Assembly: GCA_040218735.1 (NCBI GenBank)
Contig: JAVJQW010000017.1
Span: 192,001 to 256,000 of the forward strand
Length of the DNA stretch: 64,000 nucleotides
Reading direction: 5' to 3'
Source of the DNA: Deltaproteobacteria bacterium
GTDB taxonomy: Bacteria > Myxococcota > Kuafuiibacteriia > Kuafuiibacteriales > Kuafuiibacteriaceae
Shown: piece after piece, positions 2,445 to 46,055 of the stretch
Position numbering within the stretch: the first letter of the stretch is position 1
How the letters are laid out: each line of letters opens with the position of its first letter
Translations under genes and position numbers: made by a program
The notes under the pieces: generated by a model
What the model saw: only the letters and a program-made list of their open reading frames with translations
Told to the model about the DNA's origin: nothing
Databases searched by the model: none

Positions 2445-2530
2445 AAGACGGCGAGGAGGGCGCCGAGCGCGAGCGCGAGTCCGACGTCGAAGGCCATCCA
2501 GCCGAGCGAGCGGTTGCGGAGGTCGATCAT
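2441..2530 (-). CDS. Putative 29-aa small membrane peptide (MIDLRNRSLGWMAFDVGLALALGALLAVF)
   Basis: Nearly all codons end in G/C, one hydrophobic helix, sigma54-like element 14 nt upstream of the ATG, stop overlaps the GH15 stop (CTAG). Confidence 0.55.
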   Translation of the reverse strand: MIDLRNRSLGWMAFDVGLALALGALLAVF

Positions 2531-2542
2531 GCCCGTGACCAA

Positions 2543-2558
2543 CGCACGGCGTGTGCCA
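2543..2558 (-). promoter_or_regulatory. sigma54-type -24/-12 element
   Basis: Minus strand TGGCACACGCCGTGCG = GG-N10-GC. A perfect palindrome CGTGTCATGACACG lies upstream at 2591-2604. Confidence 0.55.
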
Positions 2559-2648
2559 GCCTGAATCACGCGTCCGCGGCGATTCGACGCCGTGTCATGA
2601 CACGACGGTCGTGACACAGCGACACAAAGCCCGGACACGCTTCGACGC

Positions 2649-10205: not shown

Positions 10206-12032
10206 GTGCTGACCCTCTCGATCGAACGCGACGTCGCCGAGCGCTTCCCCATCCCCGATGAGCGCGCCGAGCCGGTGTTCGAACGTTGGCGCCGCGCCGT
10301 CGATTTGGTCGTCCGCTCCGACGGCCCCGCGCACCCCGAAGGCGTCGATGGGAGCGCGCTCGCCGTGCGGCGCGAACGACTCGAGACGACGTTTCGCCGC
10401 GACGATCTGCTGACGCCCGTACCGCGCGAGCTCATCGAGGCCGGCTACTCCGCGATCATCGCGGACGCCGACGGCTACATCATCGACGAGGCCACCAGCG
10501 ATCTCTTCGCCGGGACCGCGACACACGTTCGCCTGGTCCGCGGCGCGCGGTGGAGTGAAGCGACGCGCGGCACCAACGCGATCGGCACCGCGATCACCGA
10601 GGCCCAACCGATCGCCGTCGTCGGCGACGCGCACTACGAACGTCAAAACCGATCGCTCGTCTGTTACGCCGCACCGATCCGCGATCCGCGCGGGCGCGTG
10701 GTCGCCGTCTTCGATGTCACGTCACGCGTCGAGAACGCGAGCCCGTTGGTCGGTCCGCTCGTCACCGCGATCGCCGGCGCGCTGGAGCGCTCGCTCCACG
10801 AGGCGGCGTTCGCGCGGGCGGCGCCGGGCGGCCTCGCGACGTTGGAGCGCCTCGTGGAGATGGCGCCGGGGCGGGCGTGGCTCGTCGGCGCGGACGGACG
10901 TGTGCGGGCCGCGAACAGCGGGCGGTTCGGTGGGACCTTCGAGCTCGGTTGGTCGGAGCTGGAGCGCGCGATGTCGACGGACGGCGCTGCGATCCTCCCG
11001 AGCACCGACGAACGACTCGAGCTGCAGCCGGTGCCCGGCACGGACGGTGAGCCGATCGCGGTCGTCTGCTTCTCGCGTGGCGCGGCGCGACCGCGGGCTC
11101 GTTCGGTGCACCCGGCGTTCGACACGATCGCGGGGACCGACCCGGCGCTCGTCGACGCGCGCGCGCTCGCTTCACGGTTCGCGAGCTCGAACCTCCCGGT
11201 GATGCTCTTGGCCGAGACCGGCTCTGGCAAAGAGCTGTTCGCGCGTGCGCTCCACGCCGCGAGCTCACGCGCCGACGGGCCGTTCGTCGCGGTGAACTGC
11301 GGCGCGCTCGCGTCCTCGCTCTTGGAGTCGGAGCTGTTCGGTCACGCGCCGGGGGCATTCACGGGCGCGTCCGCGAAGGGCCGCGACGGAATGATCGGCG
11401 CCGCCTCGGGCGGGACGCTGTTCCTCGACGAGGTCGCGGAGATGTCGCCCGAGCTGCAAGCCTCCCTGCTCCGCGTCCTCGAGGACGGGTCGTACCGTCG
11501 CCTCGGCGAGACGTCGGTGCGCCACACGGACGTCCGGATCGTCACCGCGACGTGCCGAGATCTCCCTGCGATGGTGGAGTCCGGCGCGTTTCGCAACGAC
11601 CTGTACTACCGGCTGCGCGGGACGACGATTCGGCTCCCCTCCGTGCGCGCGCGGACGGATCGCATCGAGCTCGCGCGACACCTCCTCGAACGCCTCGCGC
11701 TCGAAGCGGGCCGTCCGGTGCCGCGGCTCGGTGAGAGCGCGCGCGAGAAGATCGAGGCCCACGATTGGCCGGGGAACGTGCGCGAGCTGAAGATGGCCTT
11801 GGCGCACGCGCTGGTCCTCGCGGACGACGTCATGGAAGCGGAGCACCTCCCGGACGACGCCCCCGTCACGCAGGCCCCCGTGTCTCACGCACCGCCGTCC
11901 CGGAGCGACGCGGAGCGCGAAGCGTTGGCTCGCGCGCTGGCTCAGGCGGACGGCAACCTGAGCGAAGCCGCTCGGATCCTCGGCGTGGCGCGAACGACGC
12001 TGTACCGCATGAAGCGGCGGCACCGACTCTGA
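10206..12032 (+). CDS. AcoR-like sigma54-dependent activator (GAF + AAA+ + Fis HTH)
   Basis: [57 protein letters not shown]. Confidence 0.93.
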
Positions 12033-17706: not shown

Positions 17707-17788
17707 TTGCGACTCCTGCAACTCGGGGCGCCGCGCGGGTTCACTTGCGGGTGGGTGCAAGAGATCCGGTGTCGGCATGGCCTTTGCT
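17707..17788 (+). promoter_or_regulatory. Double TTGC-N7/8-GCAA sites + sigma54 -24/-12 element
   Basis: TTGCGACTCCTGCAA (17707-17721), TTGCGGGTGGGTGCAA (17745-17760), CGGCATGGCCTTTGCT (17773-17788). Near-identical cassette at 23928-24009. Confidence 0.75.
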
Positions 17789-17800
17789 CAGCAGCCACCG

Positions 17801-20746
17801 GTGAGCCGGATCAATCGACGCGAGTTCAGGACCCTCTCCGACCACAACGGTCGGCTGAACATCAACCGGATGCCTCCGCGGTTGATGCGGTCGCTCGAGT
17901 CGCACGGCGTCAGCCGCGCCGAGCTCTCCCGAATCGCCGGCGACGACCACGTCATCTCTGGGCCGGAGTTCAACGCGCTCTTCGACGCGCTGACGGCGCG
18001 CGCAGAACGCGGGGGCAGCGGCAACGACCGCGGCGTGAGCGAAGACCTCTTCAGCTCCCTCGCGTCCCGCATCGAACGGGACGGCGCGACCGAGCGAACG
18101 TCGGACTCGACCCGCTCCACCGTCGGCATCGGCGGGCGCGTGTCGGCGCGTCCCGGGACGGTCGAGACCGACGACGGCACGGCCAACCTGGACGAAGCCG
18201 CCGACCTCGAAGGCCGCACCGACGGCCAGCAGGCGTGTTGGTTCGTCGCGATGCTCCAGTGCATCGCCGAGTTCTTCGTCGAGACGATCGGCGGCGGCGA
18301 CTACATCCGCACCGCCGAGCGCGACGAGGCGCTGGGACGCGAGCTCGGTCGAAACCACGGTGAGTCGCTCCGCGCGATCCTCGACGAGCCGGGCGGCGAA
18401 GACGCCATCCGCGCCCAACTCCAGTCGCAGCGCCCGGAGGGCACCAGCGAGAACGACTGGAACCAGACCGTGAACCAGGTGATGCGCGGCATCCGCGCCG
18501 AGATCGCGAGCGGGCCCGATCTCCCCGACGACGTGGCGCCGTCCGCCGACCTCCTCGTCCGCGACCGCGCCGCCGTGCTCTACGCCGCGAACGACGACGC
18601 CGCCGCGCGCGCGGAGCTCGGCGCGACCGTCGAAGCGCTCGCGCAGAGCGGGCTGTCGACCGAGACGCAGCTCGCCTTGCTGAACCAGTGGGAGTCCGCC
18701 GGGCGTCCCGCCGAGTTCCGCCAGCAGCTCGAAGGTGTGACGCAGGCGCTGGCCGGGCGGAGCGAAGCCGTGCAGACCGCCGCGCGCGAGCAGCTCGACG
18801 CCCACCCCGAGCGCTTCGGTCGGCTCAGCGGTTTGATCCGATCGACCGGGTTCGGGAGCGACCGCATCTCGGACGACGCGCGCATCGCCGCGCTCCGCAC
18901 CACGGGCACGGACACCGCGGAAGCGGTCGCGAACCTCGACCGCCTCGTCGCCGCGGACGGCTTCGAGCGCGTCTCCCCCGAGGTCCAGACCCGCTACGTG
19001 AACATGATGCTCGACGAGTCGGTCGACGCCCGCGAGAAGACGCGCTCGCTTCAGCTCCTCGACGGCGCGCAGACCGGCGACATGGCCGGCATCAACAACG
19101 TGCTCTTCGGCGACGCGACGCTCCAGGCGGGATCGCAGGGCGACGAGGTTCGCCTCGTGCAACGCTACTTGCGCGGCCTCGGCTACGACGGCGTGCTCGG
19201 CATGACCGAGGGCAACACGTTCGACGCGGGGACGACGCGAGCCGTGGAGGCGTTCCAACGCCGCGCCGGCCTCCTCGACGGCAACCCGCCGGCCGCCACC
19301 GCTGGCGTCGTGAACCAGGCGACGATGCGCGCGATGGTGCACGCGCTCCACGCACGCGGGATGGACGCGAACGCCTTCCGCTTCACGACGGACCTGAGCC
19401 TCAACCGCCCCACGCGCGCGACCGACGGTCCGTGGCGCGCGACGCAGCGGTGGACGCCCGCGCTCCAGCAGGAGTTCGAGCAGTTCGCGGACGCGTACGT
19501 GAAGGCGCGCATCCCGCGGCACCCGAACGGACAGGCGCGGCTCCCCGAGTGGGGTGAGCGCGTCGACTGCGCGGACCTCTCGTACGAGGCGTTGATCCAG
19601 TTCGCGCGTCAGCGCGGCCTCCCGATCTCCCTGAGCAACGGCCAGACGACGTTCACGCACCGCAGCCGCGGACCGATCGTCGGACGCGTGCAGAGCGCGA
19701 TGGGCGCGATGCACCTTCGCCAGAACACACGCCCGCTCGGCGAGGGTGAGCTCCCGCGCCCCGGCGACCTCGGCAACATGGACTGGGACCAGAGCGTCGG
19801 CGACGGGCACGACAGCCGCTACTGGCACTCCCACAACATCGTCGACTTCGACCCGCTCTTCCACGAGGCGACGGTCGTCTACGGCAGCCTCGACGACCTC
19901 GTGAAGGAGAGCGCGCTCCAGCGCTTCAACGGGACCGACTACAACCTGACGATCCACGACATCCGCGAACGCGAGATCATCGACGCGATCAACGACGACA
20001 GCGGGCAGAACCGCCAGCAGCCGCGCGCGGAGCAGGAGCGCCGCGTGCGCGAGCTGTTGGAAGGGCACCGCACGGACGCGAGCCGACCCGTCTCGGACGC
20101 CGACGTGAACCGGTTCATCACGATGGTCTCGAACGACGCGAACCTGCACCGCAACGCGCCGACCGCCGTCTCCACGCGCGACGACGCGTTCACGAGCCTG
20201 GTGGAGGGCGGGCGGACCTGGGCCGACCCCACCGCGCGGGCCGCCGCGGTCGCGGACCTGAACCAGCGCTTCGGTGCGCGCTTCACGGAGGCCGACATCG
20301 ATCGCCTCGTCACGGTCTCGAACAGCCGACCGCCGCGCGGCATGACGCGACGGCAAGCGGTGACGCAGGAAGCGGCGCGCCTCGTCGCAGCGCGTGTCCC
20401 CGAGGGCCGTCGCGAGGGCGCGGCCGACGCGCTCCTCGCATCGACGCGGGGCGCGGTGCGCTACCACGCGGTGCGCGACGCCGTGTCGGACCCGGGGCTC
20501 AGGAACACGGCACGCGCCGACTTCAACCGCACCTTCGGCGCGCGCGTGACGGACCGCGACATGGTATCGATCCTTCGGGCCGGTGACGGGAGTGCACGAC
20601 GAGTGGCGGAGGGCATCGTGGCGCGACGTGGCGTCCCGGCCGAGCGCCAGGCCGAGGCCGCGCAGGCGCTCCTCGACGCCGTCGATGGCTCGCGCCGGTT
20701 CCGGAGGTGGGATTTCGATGCGTTCAACGCCGCTCGCGGCCATTAG
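17801..20746 (+). CDS. Large protein with peptidoglycan-binding domain and putative Cys/His (NlpC/P60-like) catalytic domain
   Basis: PG-binding-like LQAGSQGDEVRLVQRYL..LGY...FDAGTTRAVEAFQR..GL...GVV..ATMRAM; VDCADL, PGDL, WHSH. The ORF-track ATG 17777 lies inside the sigma54 element, so GTG 17801 is preferred. Confidence 0.75.
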   Translation: MSRINRREFRTLSDHNGRLNINRMPPRLMRSLESHGVSRAELSRIAGDDHVISGPEFNALFDALTARAERGGSGNDRGVSEDLFSSLASRIERDGATERTSDSTRSTVGIGGRVSARPGTVETDDGTANLDEAADLEGRTDGQQACWFVAMLQCIAEFFVETIGGGDYIRTAERDEALGRELGRNHGESLRAILDEPGGEDAIRAQLQSQRPEGTSENDWNQTVNQVMRGIRAEIASGPDLPDDVAPSADLLVRDRAAVLYAANDDAAARAELGATVEALAQSGLSTETQLALLNQWESAGRPAEFRQQLEGVTQALAGRSEAVQTAAREQLDAHPERFGRLSGLIRSTGFGSDRISDDARIAALRTTGTDTAEAVANLDRLVAADGFERVSPEVQTRYVNMMLDESVDAREKTRSLQLLDGAQTGDMAGINNVLFGDATLQAGSQGDEVRLVQRYLRGLGYDGVLGMTEGNTFDAGTTRAVEAFQRRAGLLDGNPPAATAGVVNQATMRAMVHALHARGMDANAFRFTTDLSLNRPTRATDGPWRATQRWTPALQQEFEQFADAYVKARIPRHPNGQARLPEWGERVDCADLSYEALIQFARQRGLPISLSNGQTTFTHRSRGPIVGRVQSAMGAMHLRQNTRPLGEGELPRPGDLGNMDWDQSVGDGHDSRYWHSHNIVDFDPLFHEATVVYGSLDDLVKESALQRFNGTDYNLTIHDIREREIIDAINDDSGQNRQQPRAEQERRVRELLEGHRTDASRPVSDADVNRFITMVSNDANLHRNAPTAVSTRDDAFTSLVEGGRTWADPTARAAAVADLNQRFGARFTEADIDRLVTVSNSRPPRGMTRRQAVTQEAARLVAARVPEGRREGAADALLASTRGAVRYHAVRDAVSDPGLRNTARADFNRTFGARVTDRDMVSILRAGDGSARRVAEGIVARRGVPAERQAEAAQALLDAVDGSRRFRRWDFDAFNAARGH

Positions 20747-21338
20747 CTTCTGCCTCGTGGCGAGCGTCGCGCTCGCCAAGGACGACACCCCCGACGCGCG
20801 AGGTTTCTCGAAGTCGTCGCCGTGGCACCCCTTCACGAAGTCGAGGACCAACCTGTCGCAGAAGTGCGGCGCCGAGATCTCCACGTTCCACCTCCTCCGC
20901 GACGACCGCGACTGGATGGAGCTCAGCGGCCAAGACCGCTACCTGTGGACCCCCGTCGGTCGCTTCGTGAACCGCGGCGACGGGTGGAAGACGATCGACG
21001 ACGACGCGTGGGACGCCGTTCGCCTCTCGGGGCGATCGCTGCGCGAGCTCTTCGGCGCGCCGCTGGTGCCCGACACCTGGACCATCGCGAAGCACACACA
21101 CGAGGGCACCGCCGTGCACTTCACGCTGGAGGACGGCAAAACCGAGCTGGTCTACGACACCCTGGCCCAAACGTGGCGCGCGCAACGCCCGGGCTGGCGC
21201 GTCACCGAGCTCACGCAATTCGACGGGCGCAAGCTCCCGACGAAGGTCGTCTTCGACGACGGCTGCACGCTGCGACGCGGCTACGAGGTACCGCGGGGGG
21301 AGACGAAGCTCCCGACGCGCGACGAGCTCCCTCTGTGA
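20718..21338 (+). CDS. Secreted hypothetical protein overlapping the upstream gene (candidate periplasmic immunity/partner)
   Basis: GGAGGT RBS, ATG 20718, signal peptide MRSTPLAAISFCLVASVALA. Confidence 0.7.
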   Translation: MRSTPLAAISFCLVASVALAKDDTPDARGFSKSSPWHPFTKSRTNLSQKCGAEISTFHLLRDDRDWMELSGQDRYLWTPVGRFVNRGDGWKTIDDDAWDAVRLSGRSLRELFGAPLVPDTWTIAKHTHEGTAVHFTLEDGKTELVYDTLAQTWRAQRPGWRVTELTQFDGRKLPTKVVFDDGCTLRRGYEVPRGETKLPTRDELPL

Positions 21339-21934
21339 AGAAGAACGACCGCTCGGATCGCGCGCTCGGCATCCGCGCGAGCCGGTGTGTCGCCGCGAAG
21401 ACGTTGGACCTCGACGGGCCCCACGCGCGCTTCGCGCAGGACTACCAACCGACGCCCCCCGAGATCCTCGACGACCTGCTCGTGGATCTCGACGTCGCGT
21501 TCGACGCGTACACCTTCGTCGATCTCGGCGCGGGCAAGGGGCGGGTGTTGTGCCTCGCGACGCAGTGGCCGTTCTCGCGGGTCGTCGGGGTGGAGCTGTC
21601 ACGAACGCTCGTGGCGCAGGCGGAAGAGAACCTCGGGGGCTACGCCGCCGAGATCCGACACGGCGACGCCGCCGCGTTTGTCTTCCCGGCGTCGCCGCTC
21701 GTCGTCTTCATGTACAACCCGTTCGACGCACCGGTCGTTCGCGCCGTGCTCGACAACCTCGAGCGCTCGCTCGAGGAGCACCCGCGCGACGTGCGCATCC
21801 TCTACTTCGAGCCGGTGCACGACGCCGTCGTACGCGAGCGCTGGTGGATCGAACCCGAGCGCGCCGCGCCGCGGTGGGCGCGTTACACCGCGAGCTTCGG
21901 TCGTGCGAACGGGCGTGCAGCCTCCAGCGCGTAG
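21335..21934 (+). CDS. Class I SAM-dependent methyltransferase
   Basis: YQPTP, FVDLGAGKGRVL, GVELS, GDA, FMYNPF; GTGA overlap with the upstream gene. Confidence 0.88.
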   Translation: MKKNDRSDRALGIRASRCVAAKTLDLDGPHARFAQDYQPTPPEILDDLLVDLDVAFDAYTFVDLGAGKGRVLCLATQWPFSRVVGVELSRTLVAQAEENLGGYAAEIRHGDAAAFVFPASPLVVFMYNPFDAPVVRAVLDNLERSLEEHPRDVRILYFEPVHDAVVRERWWIEPERAAPRWARYTASFGRANGRAASSA

Positions 21935-23268
21935 GCCAGACCGAACAACACGTCCTCGCGTCCGACGTGCGCTGCGAAGTGCATCCCGATCGGGAGGCCA
22001 TCGTCCGTCAGGCCCGACGGCACGGACATCGCGGGCACCCCGGCGATGCTGTGGATCGGCGTGTACCCGGCGAGGCGTTGCGTCTGGTGCACGAGCTCCT
22101 CGCGGGACTTGGTCGGCGCGAGGGTCCCGAGCGGCGGAGCCGGATCGGGGGTCGTCGGGCACAAGAGCACGTCGAAGGCCTCGATATACTCGAGATACTT
22201 CGCTGCCGCGGTCGCCGTGGCGGCGCGTGCCTTGTCGAGCGCGTCGGGAGGCTGCTGCCCGAACCACGCGAGGAGCTCCAGCGTGAACGGTTCGAGATCG
22301 TCAGCACCGAGCGTGCGGCCCACGAGGCCTTCGACCATCGCCTTGAAACCCGCGACGCTGGCCCCCGCCGCGACGAAGAAGGCGTCCCGGATGTCGGCGC
22401 CCTCGACGCGCGGAGCGTCGGCCTCCACGACCTCGTGGCCCAGCTCCGAGAGCAACGCGACCGTCGAGTGCAGCGACCGCGTCACGGCTTCGGACGCGGC
22501 TCCGCCGAGGAGCGTCGTCCCGTAGAAGCCGATGCGGAGCCGGCGGTCGGAGGGTTCGAGCACGAGCGGCATCCGTTCGATCGCGTCGCCTTGTGTCGCG
22601 TGGAGGAGCCGCGCGCTGTCGCGCACCGTTCGACTGACGCAGTGCTCGGTGAGCATCCCCAGCAGATCAGCCGCCTCCATCCCCGTGGGGAGCGTTCGAC
22701 CGCGCGTGGGTTTCATCCCGAACAGCCCACACGCTGCGGACGGGATGCGGATCGATCCACCCCCGTCGCTCGCGTGCGCGAACGGCACGTACCCGGCGGC
22801 GACCGCCGCCGCGGATCCTCCCGAGGAGCCCGTCGCGGAGCGCGCGAGGTTCCACGGGTTCTTGGTGGGCCCGTGCAGCAGCGTCTCCGTGCTGCCGAGC
22901 AACCCCAGCTCTGAGGTCGTCGTCTTGCCCAGTGTGACGAGGCCGGCCGCGTCGAACGCGGCGCTGTACGGCGACCCCTGGGGCGGCACGAAGCGCGCGA
23001 GCGCGCGGGAGCCGCAGGTGTTGGGCAGGCCGGGGTACGCGAGGAGGTCCTTCAGGAGGAACGGCACCCCCGCGAACGGGCCTTCGCTGACGTTCGCCGC
23101 GGCAGCGCGCGCGCGCTCGAAGTCGTGCGCCGCGAGCGCGCCGATCGTGGGTTCGAGCGCCTCGATGCGTTCGATCGCGGCGTCGACGAGCTCGACGGCG
23201 CTGACCTCGCGCTTGCGAACGAGGTCGGCCATGGCGGTGGCGTCCAGTGTTTGAAAGTCAGCTTGCAT
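21883..23268 (-). CDS. Amidase (amidase signature family)
   Basis: GVPFLLKDL, GSSGGSAAAVAAG, SDGGGSIRIP. Confidence 0.93.
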   Translation of the reverse strand: MQADFQTLDATAMADLVRKREVSAVELVDAAIERIEALEPTIGALAAHDFERARAAAANVSEGPFAGVPFLLKDLLAYPGLPNTCGSRALARFVPPQGSPYSAAFDAAGLVTLGKTTTSELGLLGSTETLLHGPTKNPWNLARSATGSSGGSAAAVAAGYVPFAHASDGGGSIRIPSAACGLFGMKPTRGRTLPTGMEAADLLGMLTEHCVSRTVRDSARLLHATQGDAIERMPLVLEPSDRRLRIGFYGTTLLGGAASEAVTRSLHSTVALLSELGHEVVEADAPRVEGADIRDAFFVAAGASVAGFKAMVEGLVGRTLGADDLEPFTLELLAWFGQQPPDALDKARAATATAAAKYLEYIEAFDVLLCPTTPDPAPPLGTLAPTKSREELVHQTQRLAGYTPIHSIAGVPAMSVPSGLTDDGLPIGMHFAAHVGREDVLFGLAYALEAARPFARPKLAV

Positions 23269-23884
23269 TTCTCACCCACTCCTTGAAGCCCGCGATCCCC
23301 GCGAGCTGGTAGCTCCAGAACGCCGCAAAAGCGCGGCGGATGTCGGCCTCGTCCTCGTGGTTCTCGAGGATCGAGACGATCGCGCGCAGCGACGTCGTGA
23401 AGATGTTGTCGAGCGTGAACCGGATGGTCTTGCTCACCACGATCCCGGGGACCTCGTGCCGCAGCTTCGCGACGGTGAGGGCGACGAGGCGCTCCACGAA
23501 CCGCGCGCCGAAGTCGGCGTAGGCCGAGCCCTCGGCGCGATCGAGCAGGACCACCACGCGGAGGCGGTGCTCGATCCAGAACGCGAGCATCGACTCGGCG
23601 TCGCCTTCGGCGCGTGCGTCGAGCTGGCCGAGATCCTCGAGCTCGACGAGCGAAGCGACACGACGATCCACGAGTCGCATCAGCTCGTCGGCGAAGGCCT
23701 CCGTGAAGACGCCGTAGAACAGCGCCTCCTTGTTCTCGAAGTACCGGTAGACGTTGCCGGTCGAGATCTGGGCTGCCTTGGCGATCGCCCCCATCGTCGC
23801 GCCCGCGTAGCCGCGCTCCGCGAAGACACGCTCCGCCGCCTCGACGATGCGCTGCTCGACCTCGGCTTTACGTCGCTGCACCAC
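23258..23884 (-). CDS. TetR/AcrR family regulator
   Basis: IVEAAERVFAERGYAGATMGAIAKAAQISTGNVYRYFENKEALF. Confidence 0.93.
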   Translation of the reverse strand: MVQRRKAEVEQRIVEAAERVFAERGYAGATMGAIAKAAQISTGNVYRYFENKEALFYGVFTEAFADELMRLVDRRVASLVELEDLGQLDARAEGDAESMLAFWIEHRLRVVVLLDRAEGSAYADFGARFVERLVALTVAKLRHEVPGIVVSKTIRFTLDNIFTTSLRAIVSILENHEDEADIRRAFAAFWSYQLAGIAGFKEWVRNAS

Positions 23885-23922
23885 CCAAAAATGAACATGT
23901 CATTCATTTTTGGATTCGTCAA
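23885..23922 (-). promoter_or_regulatory. TetR operator palindrome overlapping a sigma70-like promoter
   Basis: Perfect 11-bp inverted repeat CCAAAAATGAA-N7-TTCATTTTTGG (23885-23913); TTGACG-N17-CATGTT on the minus strand. Confidence 0.8.
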
Positions 23923-23927
23923 CGGGG

Positions 23928-24009
23928 TTGCGACTCCTGCAACTCGAGCGCCCCGCGCCCGGTCACTTGCAGCGGGCTGCAAGGAGCGCGGCCTGGCCCG
24001 CATCTTGGA
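23928..24009 (+). promoter_or_regulatory. Double TTGC-N7/8-GCAA sites + sigma54-like element (-12 variant TTGG)
   Basis: TTGCGACTCCTGCAA (23928-23942), TTGCAGCGGGCTGCAA (23967-23982), TGGCCCGCATCTTGGA (23994-24009). Confidence 0.7.
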
Positions 24010-24021
24010 ACGTTGGCCCCC

Positions 24022-25176
24022 ATGGGCACTCCAGACGTGCGCCGGGGCCGATCGACGCTCCCGATCCATCAGCCGACGGTCGCGCGACCGAACGTCACGC
24101 GCACCGGGCCTTCGGCGCCCGACGCGCCGGCGGTCGAGGGGCCCCGCGGACCGCGCTGGTCCCAGACCCCCGCGTGGGCGGAGCGAGCCGGCGCCGCGAA
24201 CGAGGGCGGCGGCGCAGAGCCGACCTACCAAGGCCCGCCCGCGGCGCGCCTCGGTGCGGGGAGCGAACGCCCCATCGCCGACGACCCGCAGCGTGCACGT
24301 CCCGCCGATCGCCCCGCCGACACCCCCGGCATCGGCGCGCGCACCACGCGCACGAAGGACACGAAGGACCCGCCCACGGCGCAACGTAACTTGCCGCCGA
24401 TCCGCTACGACTCCGCGGACGCCGGAGACTTCTACTGCGAGCACGTCTTCCACGTCGCGCAGCGCGAGGCGCTCGCGTCGTCGAGTTCCGTGATGCGCAA
24501 CGGCCAGGGTGAGCGGCTCGTCGGCTTCATCCACATCCCGCAGGACAGCCAGGCGACGCAGGCTCCGGACCCGACGCCCACGGACGCGGAGCAGGCGGCC
24601 CGACACGCCCAGACCCGGCAGGTGGTCGGCGCGGGCATCGCCGGCTACTTCGACGAAGCGCGCACGCAGACGGACGGCCCGGTGCGCATCATGCTGAGTG
24701 GGTTCGGGACGTTCGGCTCGTTCACCAACAACCCGTCGGGGGACTTCGTCTCGCACCGCGCGAACATCGACGCGGCGATGGAGGAGGCCTTCGGCGCGAA
24801 CCTCGTCGGACGACCGCCGGCGAACGCGGACATGAACCAACCGCTGACGTACCGCGTGCGCCAGCAGGACGGAACGGAGCGCGAGGTGCAGATCCGCGCG
24901 GTGAGGCTATCGGTGGACGATGCGGCGCTCGACCCAGCGCGCGCCGGATCGATCCCCCACACCATGCGGGACTTCGCACCGCACGCGGTGATCTCGATGG
25001 GTCTGCGGCCCGGGAGCCAGACGCACTACGACGTCGAGAACCACGCCGACGACGGCGGCCTCGCGACCGGGTCGAACGGCACGTCCACGCACCAACGCGG
25101 ACGTGCCTCTTCGACCGACTACGCCAACCGCAGCCTCGAGCGCGCGATCGAGAGCGCCCGGCAGACCGCGCCCTAA
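24022..25176 (+). CDS. Circularly permuted pyroglutamyl-peptidase I (C15)-like protein with disordered N-terminus
   Basis: SADAGDFYCEHVF (Cys) and GFIHIP (His) precede IMLSGFGTFG..NNPS, VISMG and VENHA (Glu), the reverse of the canonical order. Confidence 0.82.
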   Translation: MGTPDVRRGRSTLPIHQPTVARPNVTRTGPSAPDAPAVEGPRGPRWSQTPAWAERAGAANEGGGAEPTYQGPPAARLGAGSERPIADDPQRARPADRPADTPGIGARTTRTKDTKDPPTAQRNLPPIRYDSADAGDFYCEHVFHVAQREALASSSSVMRNGQGERLVGFIHIPQDSQATQAPDPTPTDAEQAARHAQTRQVVGAGIAGYFDEARTQTDGPVRIMLSGFGTFGSFTNNPSGDFVSHRANIDAAMEEAFGANLVGRPPANADMNQPLTYRVRQQDGTEREVQIRAVRLSVDDAALDPARAGSIPHTMRDFAPHAVISMGLRPGSQTHYDVENHADDGGLATGSNGTSTHQRGRASSTDYANRSLERAIESARQTAP

Positions 25177-45600: not shown

Positions 45601-46055
45601 GCGTCGAGATCCGACCAGCGGTCGATCGCGAGATCGAGGAGGTAGGCCTGCTCGTCCTCGGTGAGCTCGCCGAGCTCGGAGTCACCGCGGACGGCGTCCT
45701 GGATCAGCTCGACCTCTTCGTGGTGATTGCGGTCGGCCAGGTAGTCTTCGTCTTCGAGCGCCTGGTCGAACGCTTCGATCTCGTCACGGCGCTCGTCCGA
45801 GATGCTGTCGTCGTCGGACTCGGCGGCCGGCGGGATCTCCGGCTGGCGTGGGATCGGCGCGGGGATCTCGGGCGCGGACGGCGCGGGTCCGCTCGTGACC
45901 TCGAAGCGATCCCCCTCGTCGACGGCCGTCGGCGCTGCGGAGGTCGGTGCTGCGGAGGTCGGCGACGCGCTCGGCGCCGTCGTGGTCTCTTCGCGCTCGA
46001 CGGTGTTCTCGCGGACGCGTTCGGCGACGCGGCCGGCGATCTTCGAAAGGCCCAC
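42648..46055 (-). CDS. DUF4781-like domain protein with C-terminal zincin metalloprotease (candidate polymorphic toxin)
   Basis: LPLFRV...FVDNVGRVY..F.DW...N.LP.G...YP.DG, then hydrophobic helices; C-terminal FAHEIGH ... SRYA..NP.EDFAET. Start GTG 46055 inferred. Confidence 0.8.
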   Translation of the reverse strand: MGLSKIAGRVAERVRENTVEREETTTAPSASPTSAAPTSAAPTAVDEGDRFEVTSGPAPSAPEIPAPIPRQPEIPPAAESDDDSISDERRDEIEAFDQALEDEDYLADRNHHEEVELIQDAVRGDSELGELTEDEQAYLLDLAIDRWSDLDADYYDRQTNYWAIDELAYGSLDDPELQAPVSEALARQSIELEEGLFDGSIGNSVSERGLAATFASHAVIAAGTDEGRRELIENLGPEDAASLMGSLGRETSSVTTSFGSAASNYDVAQSQGLLLHAINDGEPTEATAAVVDAAFATATREDLREQDGFVADELAEAIATHWHPDDAELAASETERLQGIFDSGQGREYLFSEDLTYEGRLENLARVQANPEWDRDLFTSESSVYDVPTIVFDEFADTARQYEDLRGDEPVELSGTDLENTVGFAMGFPPQGIDPDETDAERDAREEAMARGDHSLFEGEPAQEVVEPVADAIRSVGGDDPEVTVLPIQFAADGVGTVELPLFRVVDEDTGAERFVDNVGRVYDDFDDWKKNNVLPPGNVTYPQDGHLDEKVTLATRNTPNTIDTPGERISAFLDTASLVGGTIAGGAIILGSGGTLAPVVVGAAASWQVYRSADQLYDRYQHGQSVNPLEDPAARAAWLDVGAGALSIASLGATGVAGRLVNTGSRYAASGATAASFLRVGAGALDAAAAGNAGYTLLTEWDDLSGAERANLALSVGFWGVGAATNARPFDLEGRRTAALFDQVDATSARRLQQDLPDDVAGYLARSEAFQDLTPAQRRTFLDDNLESFDALARTPEFDALSPRAKQRLVERWGDLDVDVRQRYLDLDPGHGAFRAQVADVVGTDGFARLDAAEQTRLLDLIGGENPQISRPVRQALHDMVTSREWRGYDANQQRVELEAFLADPRGLPQVNEGMNNHARPPGVSPNVSMPTTIGRYPFRGGSDTATSYTVDVHGQQVEVVINNRTAPNGQRQPTIDEIADGLARLPPEALQQVDRVVIESAPNPSDAYWQNVYGEPGFTSYMTADTPNRTINVYPSPSHYQNTLASSFAHEIGHFESQGRWGYNSNDTNWEPWRDAIDADTTGVSRYASQNPQEDFAETYAVYLDVLGTPREAELRALMPERFAILDTIHGAP

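Follow-up and report, generated by a model that had tools for sequence, protein, structure and literature searches.

The DNA analysed here is a 64,000-nucleotide window on contig JAVJQW010000017.1 of a Myxococcota genome (G000:C23:192001-256000, where G000 denotes this genome of 11.6 Mb, 68.8% GC and 70 contigs, and C a contig), and our subject is an upstream cassette that two unrelated genes in it have in common. One of these genes encodes a 981-aa protein that opens with a domain of about 100 residues, hereafter the N-domain, and the other encodes a 384-aa protein. Upstream of each lie an identical 19-mer, a second palindrome of the form TTGC-N8-GCAA, a sigma-54 -24/-12 box and then the start codon, which stands 94 nt from the first base of the 19-mer at both sites, with exactly 13 nt between the -12 dinucleotide and GTG 17801 or ATG 24022 (Table 1). 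The near-identity of the two upstream regions was noticed in a first-pass annotation made from the sequence, and the 19-mer, the second palindrome, the box and the start spacing are all confirmed. Allowing up to three mismatches, the 19-mer matches the window twice against 0.02 matches expected, and none of 100 shuffles gave two or more; in the whole 11.6-Mb genome there are two exact copies, and the count stays at two when one mismatch is allowed. It is the 19-mer together with a sigma-54 box at a fixed distance, rather than the bare palindrome, that lies far beyond chance. TTGC-N7-GCAA and TTGC-N8-GCAA are not enriched genome-wide (86 and 76 matches, versus 58-82 at other spacings), so the palindrome alone carries little meaning, and the tandem palindrome pair is found at three loci only in the genome. 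The double palindrome had been put forward as the signature of a regulon, a role it does not fill: the second TTGC-N8-GCAA occurs only at the two window sites and their same-genus orthologues, and it is probably an accessory activator site that is not general to the regulon. The M28 peptidase gene that had been named as a target of the cassette is encoded on the other strand, upstream of the cassette, and falls outside its control. A search of the whole window against Rfam gave no match at the gathering threshold.

Relaxing the 19-mer to its inverted repeat, TTGC-N7-GCAACTCG, changes the picture. This regular expression, derived from the two window sites only, has nine matches in the genome, seven of them with a sigma-54 box 25-220 nt downstream and six with the box at offset 66. 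Four of the seven matches beyond the window pair have a box at that exact offset, as compared with a random rate of 4.45e-4 for a box at offsets 65-66 (89 of 200,000 positions). The first-pass annotation had allowed that the cassette might be peculiar to the two window genes; with the motif relaxed, it is not. Paralogy leads to the same sites from another direction. Within the genome, the 981-aa protein has two paralogues over its first ~120 residues, encoded at C21:433147 and C24:73534. Relatives of the 19-mer with four mismatches lie exactly 94 nt before both, and in each case a box follows, 13 nt from the start codon. Over the 94 nt from motif to start codon, six sites can be aligned free of gaps, and the wider set was recovered with an nhmmer profile of these six and then with a weight matrix. 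At 21 bits or more, 11 of 13 matrix sites have a box; the lower bins give 1 of 27 (17-21 bits), 14 of 144 (13-17 bits) and 24 of 621 (10-13 bits), and a box was found near 947 of 20,000 random positions (4.7%). Because the matrix was trained on its own top sites, the regular-expression test is the unbiased one.

The resulting set comprises at least 11 promoters on five contigs, with the start codon 13-14 nt after the -12 element in eight of them. Eight sites have the box at an offset of 65-66 from the motif, one has it at 77, and the remaining two at 102 and 153. A GG-N10-G[CT] in a TGGC/TTGC context, as in sigma-54 promoters, is present in ten of the 11, and the inverted repeat recurs at fixed distances upstream of the promoters and is conserved in orthologues, as would an enhancer, or upstream activating sequence (UAS). 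From site to site the common features are just the motif, the box and the spacing, with unrelated sequence in between, which is not the pattern of a repeat or mobile element. The genome has a single rpoN (one Sigma54_DBD gene, C9:168658) and 103 matches to PF00158, roughly 90 of them strong, and so encodes both sigma-54 and enhancer-binding proteins. Inspected by eye, the N-termini of ten products have no hydrophobic signal-like stretch. The proposal of a dispersed sigma-54 regulon of effector-like products lacking signal peptides, judged from those N-termini, is supported by the recurring UAS and box, and the check suggested in the first-pass annotation, whether the matches include an activator and a secretion apparatus, turned up an SctV paralogue and an FHA-activator pair that carry the same upstream site. 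We regard the regulon and promoter reading as very likely.

Table 1. Features of the two window sites, members of the proposed regulon and related loci. Positions are in the window where so marked and otherwise given as contig:position in G000.
Feature	Position	Strand	Motif-to-box offset	-12 to start	Product or remark
UAS, site 1, TTGC-N7-GCAACTCG	window 17707..17725	+			67 nt before -24 GG; arms kept, spacer altered in same-genus orthologue
Second palindrome, site 1, CAC-TTGC-N8-GCAA-G	window 17742..17761	+			arms kept in G001 orthologue; not at the other 9 promoters
Sigma-54 -24/-12 box, site 1, CGGCATGGCCTTTGCT	window 17773..17788 (GG 17774-5, GC 17786-7)	+			GG-N10-GC
Gene, 981-aa protein	window 17801..20746	+		GTG	N-domain + PG_binding_1; start set by homologues
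UAS, site 2, identical 19-mer	window 23928..23946	+			G001 orthologue TTGCGATCTCTGCAACTCG
Second palindrome, site 2, CAC-TTGC-N8-GCAA-G	window 23964..23983	+
Sigma-54-like box, site 2, TGGCCCGCATCTTGGA	window 23994..24009	+			GG-N10-GG (non-canonical -12)
Gene, 384-aa protein	window 24022..25176	+		ATG 13 nt past box	disordered Arg/Pro-rich N-terminus
Sigma-54 activator gene	window 10206..12032	+			AAA+ and HTH_8; 5.7 kb upstream of site 1; candidate cognate activator
Member 1, UAS	C23:209707 (window 17707)		66	13 nt, GTG	981 aa, N-domain + PG_binding_1
Member 2, UAS	C23:215928 (window 23928)		66	13 nt, ATG	384 aa
Member 3, UAS	C24:73440		66	13 nt, GTG	921 aa, N-domain
Member 4, UAS	C21:433053		66	13 nt, ATG	2559 aa, N-domain + Fic
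Member 5, UAS	C21:441512		65	14 nt, GTG	391 aa, no Pfam match
Member 6, UAS	C24:70012		66	13 nt, GTG (-12 = GT)	476 aa, PGAP1/lipase-like hydrolase
Member 7, UAS	C23:96633	-	66	13 nt, ATG	149 aa, no Pfam match
Member 8, UAS	C21:311316		66	~30 nt, with AAGGAG	192 aa, RTX-like; adjoins FHA activator gene
Member 9, UAS	C16:12739		77	13 nt, ATG	587 aa, RTX + Peptidase_M91 (NleD-like)
Member 10, UAS	C70:149519	-	153	Shine-Dalgarno leader	operon: 148, 177, 334, 142/217 aa, 241-aa TPR, 725-aa SctV
Member 11, UAS	C70:161117	-	102		395-aa FHA-AAA+ without HTH, then 611-aa FHA/weak AAA+/HTH_50
Weaker candidate	C70:147013			13 nt, ATG	within SctV operon
Weaker candidate	C21:2528
Candidate cognate activators	C70 FHA pair; window 10206-12032; C21:312015-313355; C24:65855
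SctV/FlhA (FHIPEP) matches	C23:323241, C59:395676, C41:146084, C70:143580, C38:16372, C9:330842, C16:73260

A close relative preserves the arrangement. In a genome of the same genus (G001), the orthologous proteins of the two window genes are 74-75% identical; the site-1 orthologue carries TTGCCGGTCCTGCAACTCC, CTTGC-N8-GCAAG, the box CGGCACGGGCCTTGCT, 13 nt and GTG, 94 nt in total, and the site-2 orthologue carries TTGCGATCTCTGCAACTCG, the second palindrome, an identical 16-nt box, 13 unrelated nt and ATG. The arms and the distances have been kept and the spacers have drifted, a footprint typical of protein-binding sites. The C24:73440 site, too, is present in G001, its 19-mer identical, and one of the G001 sites is the full palindrome CGAGTTGC-N7-GCAACTCG; the G001 contig C113 stops short of the expected UAS position of its SctV locus. 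Among N-domain homologues from the six genomes compared, a sigma-54 box lies 13-16 nt (22 nt in one) before the start that aligns with residue 1, and the homologues in two of these relatives, L004 and L011, have a UAS-like motif 67 and 77 nt from the -24 GG (counted by hand).

The short distance from box to gene depends on where the genes begin, and here the start codons are well placed. For the 981-aa protein the first-pass annotation had considered ATG 17777 as an alternative, and GTG 17801 is the start on three counts: nine N-domain homologues can be aligned from their first residue on (M-x-R-I-x-R-R-E-F), an in-frame TAG stands four codons before the start of the C21 paralogue and no other start codon separates the two, and ATG 17777 reads CGGCACGGG in the G001 orthologue and is hence not conserved. 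The N-domain also stands at residue 1 in most of the 150 representative clusters listed, out of 216. With the starts fixed only 13-14 nt from the -12 GC, there is no space for a Shine-Dalgarno sequence. Sigma-54 promoters are classically followed by ordinary leaders, and in the standard -24/-12 numbering 13-14 nt after the GC places the start codon at about +3 or +4. This falls within the limit of PMC12754779, where, in the portion available to us, a leaderless mRNA is one with a 5' untranslated region of 5 nt or less. Going by this geometry, start-abutting promoters probably give leaderless transcripts.

The same geometry extends well beyond the regulon, contrary to the earlier suggestion that it is special to effector-like genes. 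The canonical core TGGC-N7-TTGC[AT] has 77 matches in the genome, with ATG or GTG at 13, 14 and 15 nt in 9, 12 and 4 cases and at each other offset from 6 to 25 nt in only 0-4. From 583 boxes scoring 10 or more, a long open reading frame (ORF) with high GC at third codon positions (GC3) begins at 13, 14 and 15 nt in 53, 75 and 30 cases, about 158 altogether; offsets 5-12 give 1-9 and offsets 16-40 give 0-18. Most of these ORFs have Sec or lipoprotein-type N-termini, which lends independent support to the called starts and also shows that promoters of the leaderless design serve more than signal-less effectors. For 121 genomes from the phylum we compared the core followed by ATG or GTG at 13-14 nt with the same at 19-20 nt (sums by hand): the window's family gives 395 versus 139 in 20 genomes (21 versus 3 in G000, 20 versus 2 in G001), and two other families give 94 versus 79 (12 genomes) and 327 versus 271 (18 genomes). 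Among the papers listed on leaderless mRNAs with sigma54 or RpoN, we found no title or abstract opening that describes sigma-54-dependent leaderless mRNAs; leaderless promoters of myxobacteria may be a subject of Table S5 and supplementary figures S9 and S14 in PMC12754779. Two side observations belong to the phylum sample. It spans genomes of 0.3-0.6 Mb (87-91% completeness) and of 9-11 Mb, which is unexpected for Myxococcota, and one of its genomes (G031) has an identical 32-nt string, consisting of box, 13 nt and ATG, at no fewer than nine places, often at contig ends; the string seems to belong to an insertion element present in many copies, with a start-abutting sigma-54 promoter in front of its first gene.

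We propose that the inverted repeat TTGC-N7-GCAACTCG is the target of a bacterial enhancer-binding protein, the UAS lying 67 nt ahead of the -24 GG and, at some promoters, 10-11 nt farther away than that. The bound activator would then remodel sigma-54 RNA polymerase held at YGGCCCG-N4-TTGCT, and transcription, predicted to be sigma-54-dependent, would begin 2-3 nt before the start codon and produce an essentially leaderless mRNA. The kinase and FHA-activator pair on C70 may be the cognate regulator, and the products may be substrates of a type III-like export pathway that runs through the C70 SctV paralogue. What the sequences themselves establish is the motif with its geometry and conservation, the positions of the start codons and the genes involved. 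The explanation as a whole we consider likely, namely that the cassette serves as enhancer and promoter for a single dispersed sigma-54 regulon whose effector-like genes are linked to an SctV paralogue; the SctV export route by itself, which draws on proximity and shared cis-elements, we would put a little short of even. The core of the earlier interpretation, a UAS with a sigma-54 promoter and a dispersed regulon, survives, whereas the palindrome pair, the special spacing, the M28 peptidase and the two further window sites to which the regulon had been extended, near 2530 and 46055, do not.

Those two sites merit a brief description. The 29-aa ORF at 2530 does have a good box, 13 nt and an ATG, as had been reported, and it lacks the regulon UAS, so another activator would serve it; the site near 46055 has a weak box only, with no TTGC, and again no regulon UAS, so the same holds there. 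The box of the 29-aa ORF (window 2530-2620, minus strand), which has a hydrophobic tail, is TGGCACACGCCGTGCG and lies 13 nt before the start. GTGTCA/TGACAC-type palindromes upstream of it resemble the sequences before two tandem 132-aa genes, C17:108262 and C17:109462, and the promoter looks like part of a regulon of another activator. Close to site 2, in AT-rich DNA, a perfect 11-bp inverted repeat with a 7-nt centre (23885-23913) abuts the GTG start of a TetR-family gene (23258-23884, minus strand) and is probably the operator of that repressor. The TetR gene itself has no room for a leader, and an amidase gene (21883-23268, minus strand) comes next.

Why do we associate the regulon with secretion at all? 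The genome has seven SctV/FlhA (FHIPEP) matches, six full-length and one partial. The set at C23:305853-325271 is non-flagellar, and the SctR-SctU-FlhA set on C59 lies among flagellar rod genes (C59:375000-408000); the organism appears to be flagellated. Four further full-length SctV are orphans that share 45-47% identity with the non-flagellar copy and 32-36% with the flagellar one; for the C70 paralogue the values are 46% and 32%. FHIPEP matches occur in all 20 family genomes, with 1-7 in each, and a TPR gene directly precedes SctV paralogues in several of them by coordinates, as is true of the G000 orphans examined. The other G000 SctV loci have sigma-54 boxes 13-14 nt before start codons and are without the regulon UAS, which is common to the effector-like genes and one apparatus gene only, that of the TPR and SctV operon on C70. 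This C70 locus brings together two copies of the UAS, the TPR and SctV genes, the FHA-activator pair, two PEGA-domain Ser/Thr kinases and the fourth and last N-domain gene. The latter encodes a 415-aa PG_binding_1 protein in an operon divergent from the SctV-locus UAS and is preceded by TGGCACGCAGGTTGAA and a Shine-Dalgarno leader. Each of the genome's four N-domain genes is found behind or beside a UAS, one of them inside the SctV locus. What the locus contains, by proximity and shared cis-elements, favours the C70 activators as regulators and an SctV-dependent route. We also observed, adjoining the TPR-SctV pair on C38, a 125-aa ORF at C38:19471 (minus strand) that begins MARIERSAFAN 13 nt past a box; its N-terminus looks N-domain-like, yet the profile search (E <=0.01) missed it.

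The N-domain itself is found in three regulon proteins, fused to peptidoglycan (PG)-binding, Fic or unknown modules, and an exhaustive profile search places it in 216 representative clusters. Seventy members were scanned, and they carry PG_binding_1 (11), Peptidase_C39_2 (5) and, once each, LysM, CHAP, S8, Fic, CdiA_C, GGDEF, transglutaminase-like and Cullin_binding modules, a range consistent with polymorphic effectors directed mostly against cell walls. The structural model has five helices at a predicted local distance difference test score (pLDDT) of 76. A locus search with a 4-row alignment gave two loci, and the profile run against PDB sequences found only a 24-residue likeness to the TALE-like repeats of BurrH. 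In that likeness, N-domain residues 28-51 (the domain is encoded at 17801-18130) read L-x-x-H-G-V-S-x-x-x-L-x-x-I-A-G-x-D; the whole-sequence E is 4e-10 and no single stretch passes. PDB sequence searches returned nothing for the 981-aa protein and nothing at E <=0.1 for the 384-aa protein. The best feature matches in the protein atlas, a PopF1/NolX cluster and a 'type III secretion effector' cluster (both 0.79), lie below the level that shuffled proteins often reach and serve as leads only.

The 384-aa protein combines its Arg/Pro-rich N-terminus with a conserved C-terminal domain of 260 aa (window 24394-25173). Pfam found nothing in the protein and Foldseek nothing significant for the C-terminal domain. 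With VIA, the top two of 48,161 chains for this domain are pyroglutamyl peptidase I (PGP-I), 2ebj_B (Z 5.7, root-mean-square deviation 3.4, 109 aligned, 24% identity) and 3rnz_A (Z 5.7, root-mean-square deviation 3.9, 114 aligned), matches that cover only model residues 96-260, the second half of the domain, against chain residues 1-130. Its invariant Cys, His and Glu come in an order implying circular permutation, and the motifs GDFYCEH, LVGFIHIP and GFGTF..NNPSGDFV are ones that we take to be PGP-I-like in permuted order. The modelled domain may resemble a circularly permuted PGP-I fold (Peptidase C15), which we offer as a lead only.

Several points weigh against the explanation we favour. 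The weight matrix was trained on sites ranked by the same matrix, leaving the regular-expression test and C70:161117 as the independent evidence; the genome is a 70-contig assembly with an estimated 4.65% contamination; and site 2 has GG in place of the near-invariant -12 GC, an exception that is nonetheless conserved in the G001 orthologue. Among 20 family genomes the strict composite pattern of UAS and box, which misses even most of G000's own sites, occurs only in G000 (two sites) and G001 (one) and is absent from the other 18, and a looser UAS pattern tried in five relatives gave matches no commoner than a reversed control. GTG is the start at four of the eight start-abutting promoters, and available portions of PMC3616915 describe GTG as working poorly in E. 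coli when it is a leaderless start. The cognate activator is one of several candidates: within ~10 kb of members there are five activator genes, in a genome that has about one per 130 kb. The N-domain has no recognised fold (Foldseek against PDB gave none at E <=0.001, with weak calmodulin, EF-hand and death-domain rows). The genome has only two SctU and two SctR genes, one set being flagellar, and two secretin genes, neither of them in or near the C23 type III cluster, and the SctV operon departs from the common geometry in having its box 153 nt from the UAS and a normal Shine-Dalgarno leader. Facts of this last kind suit an alternative in which the regulon is as described and its products are not type III substrates: they would leave by another route (Tad/Kil-like, type VI, vesicles or lysis) or act inside the cell, and the UAS at SctV would reflect co-regulation of separate functions. 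It is favoured by there being just one non-flagellar SctU and SctR set, without a secretin in its cluster, and by the differing promoter geometry of the SctV operon. RTX repeats on two members are typical of type I substrates, and the CdiA_C and PG-binding modules of the N-domain family occur with several secretion routes. In favour of type III export, SctV is the only apparatus-like gene among the 13 best UAS matches (no search was aimed at type I, type VI or Tad), the TPR-SctV modules are conserved in the family, and the placement of all four N-domain genes relative to the UAS points the same way. We hold this alternative to be a real possibility, though somewhat improbable.

The promoter reading has rivals of its own. 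The genes might not be leaderless but transcribed from a sigma-70-type promoter further upstream, with GG-N10-GC near starts being a compositional or translational feature; site 2 without its -12 GC would be at home here, and loose GG-N10-GC is very common in high-GC DNA (230,981 matches). We find this unlikely, given that 25 of the 77 canonical cores have ATG or GTG at 13-15 nt, that many of the 158 long high-GC3 ORFs opened at this distance by good boxes have typical signal peptides, and that the enrichment is specific to the family; at several members, moreover, the stop codon of the upstream gene comes immediately before the 19-mer, with no room for another promoter. Could the shared sequence instead be a duplicated promoter fragment, or a small dispersed repeat, kept by descent? 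Three members are N-domain paralogues, and in the two window copies the N7 spacer is identical and the GC-rich sequence leading to the second palindrome is similar. Seven members, however, encode unrelated proteins, nothing is retained between sites outside the motif, box and distances, orthologues combine conserved arms with changed spacers, and there are no terminal repeats or target duplications, nor anything in Rfam at the gathering threshold, so that descent from a duplicated fragment seems very unlikely. The divergent TetR-family gene raises the question of whether the palindromes are its operators and control both window genes, since it lies directly upstream of site 2 on the other strand and TetR proteins bind palindromes in such intergenic regions. 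Yet the neighbouring ORFs scanned at the other ten sites include no TetR gene, the 11-bp repeat abutting the TetR start is a better operator candidate, and the cassette is oriented with, and spaced from, plus-strand sigma-54 boxes; we regard TetR control as extremely unlikely.

About a quarter of the good sigma-54 boxes in this genome abut a start codon, and a lineage of this kind would couple the tightest known transcriptional switch directly to Shine-Dalgarno-free translation. The fixed 67-nt geometry of enhancer and promoter, with no obvious bending site, would offer a natural system for studying contacts between activators and sigma-54. A regulon that ties an SctV paralogue and a TPR gene to signal-less PG-directed and Fic/M91-type proteins would amount to a testable list of effector candidates, and the N-domain, with its 216 representative clusters, would provide a search handle for such effectors. 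It is tempting to speculate further that the family has made sigma-54 promoters a general device for producing leaderless mRNAs on command (~150 here), that a circuit from Ser/Thr kinases to the FHA-activator pair co-fires the TPR and SctV genes with a polymorphic set of effectors marked by the N-domain, a module not described before, that the four extra SctV are interchangeable substrate-selection modules on one secretin-less core, each with its own sigma-54 regulon, and that N-domain proteins are cargo of the kind exported by T3SS*, the needle-less type III secretion system of Myxococcus xanthus. We think this larger picture doubtful; were it true, N-domain proteins (PG-binding, C39-like, CHAP, Fic, CdiA_C) would be cargo of the kind that has long been sought for T3SS*-like machines of predators.

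One parallel is offered by the Hrp systems (PMC8228185 is a review on them). In these, HrpR and HrpS (Pseudomonas syringae) or HrpS (Erwinia) activate hrpL, and the extracytoplasmic function sigma factor that it encodes then reads hrp boxes at the effector genes. There, as proposed here, sigma-54 and adjacent paralogous activators govern a type III-linked programme, and the C70 locus also has two adjacent activator paralogues. The differences are that here an enhancer and a sigma-54 box stand directly at each effector-like gene, with no hrpL step, that the activators have FHA domains suggestive of kinase input and one is without an HTH, and that most targets would be leaderless. Gene order in the C70 operon recalls the YscX-YscY-YscV arrangement of Yersinia, in which a small TPR-like chaperone gene directly precedes the gene for the export gate (YscV, that is SctV) and a small possible substrate gene comes first. 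The likeness is one of gene order, and unlike in Yersinia the module is multiplied here, with four full-length extra SctV, and stands apart from the core apparatus. Type III systems under the control of sigma-54 are known from gamma-proteobacteria and Chlamydia, going by the available portions of PMC12316311 and PMC7482065. The sigma-54/CtcC regulon of Chlamydia trachomatis includes type III effectors (PMC7482065), and so resembles the present case in placing sigma-54 directly at effector genes; it belongs to another phylum and has a single activator, and neither a fixed enhancer geometry nor start-abutting promoters are among the features reported in the parts of that paper at hand. As for the leaderless design, mRNAs of this type arise from sigma-70-type promoters whose -10 element abuts the ORF in Deinococcus-Thermus (PMC12340547), and among myxobacteria a leaderless sigma-70-type promoter is described for pexR (PMC12754779), both as far as the accessible sections go. 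In these cases as in ours, a promoter element keeps a fixed, short distance to the start and there is no Shine-Dalgarno sequence; they differ in that the abutting element here is the -12 of sigma-54, so that transcripts would need the command of an activator. A further parallel is the T3SS* of M. xanthus, a needle-less and secretin-less machine for contact-dependent prey lysis whose effectors are stated to be unknown in the available text of PMC10433427. Our genome likewise has a non-flagellar type III cluster without a nearby secretin and LcrH-like TPR chaperone genes beside SctV, and the PG-directed modules of the N-domain family are what one would expect of prey-lysis effectors. It differs from M. 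xanthus in having flagellar genes and four full-length extra SctV, and in a candidate sigma-54 regulon of a kind that the same portion of PMC10433427 does not describe.

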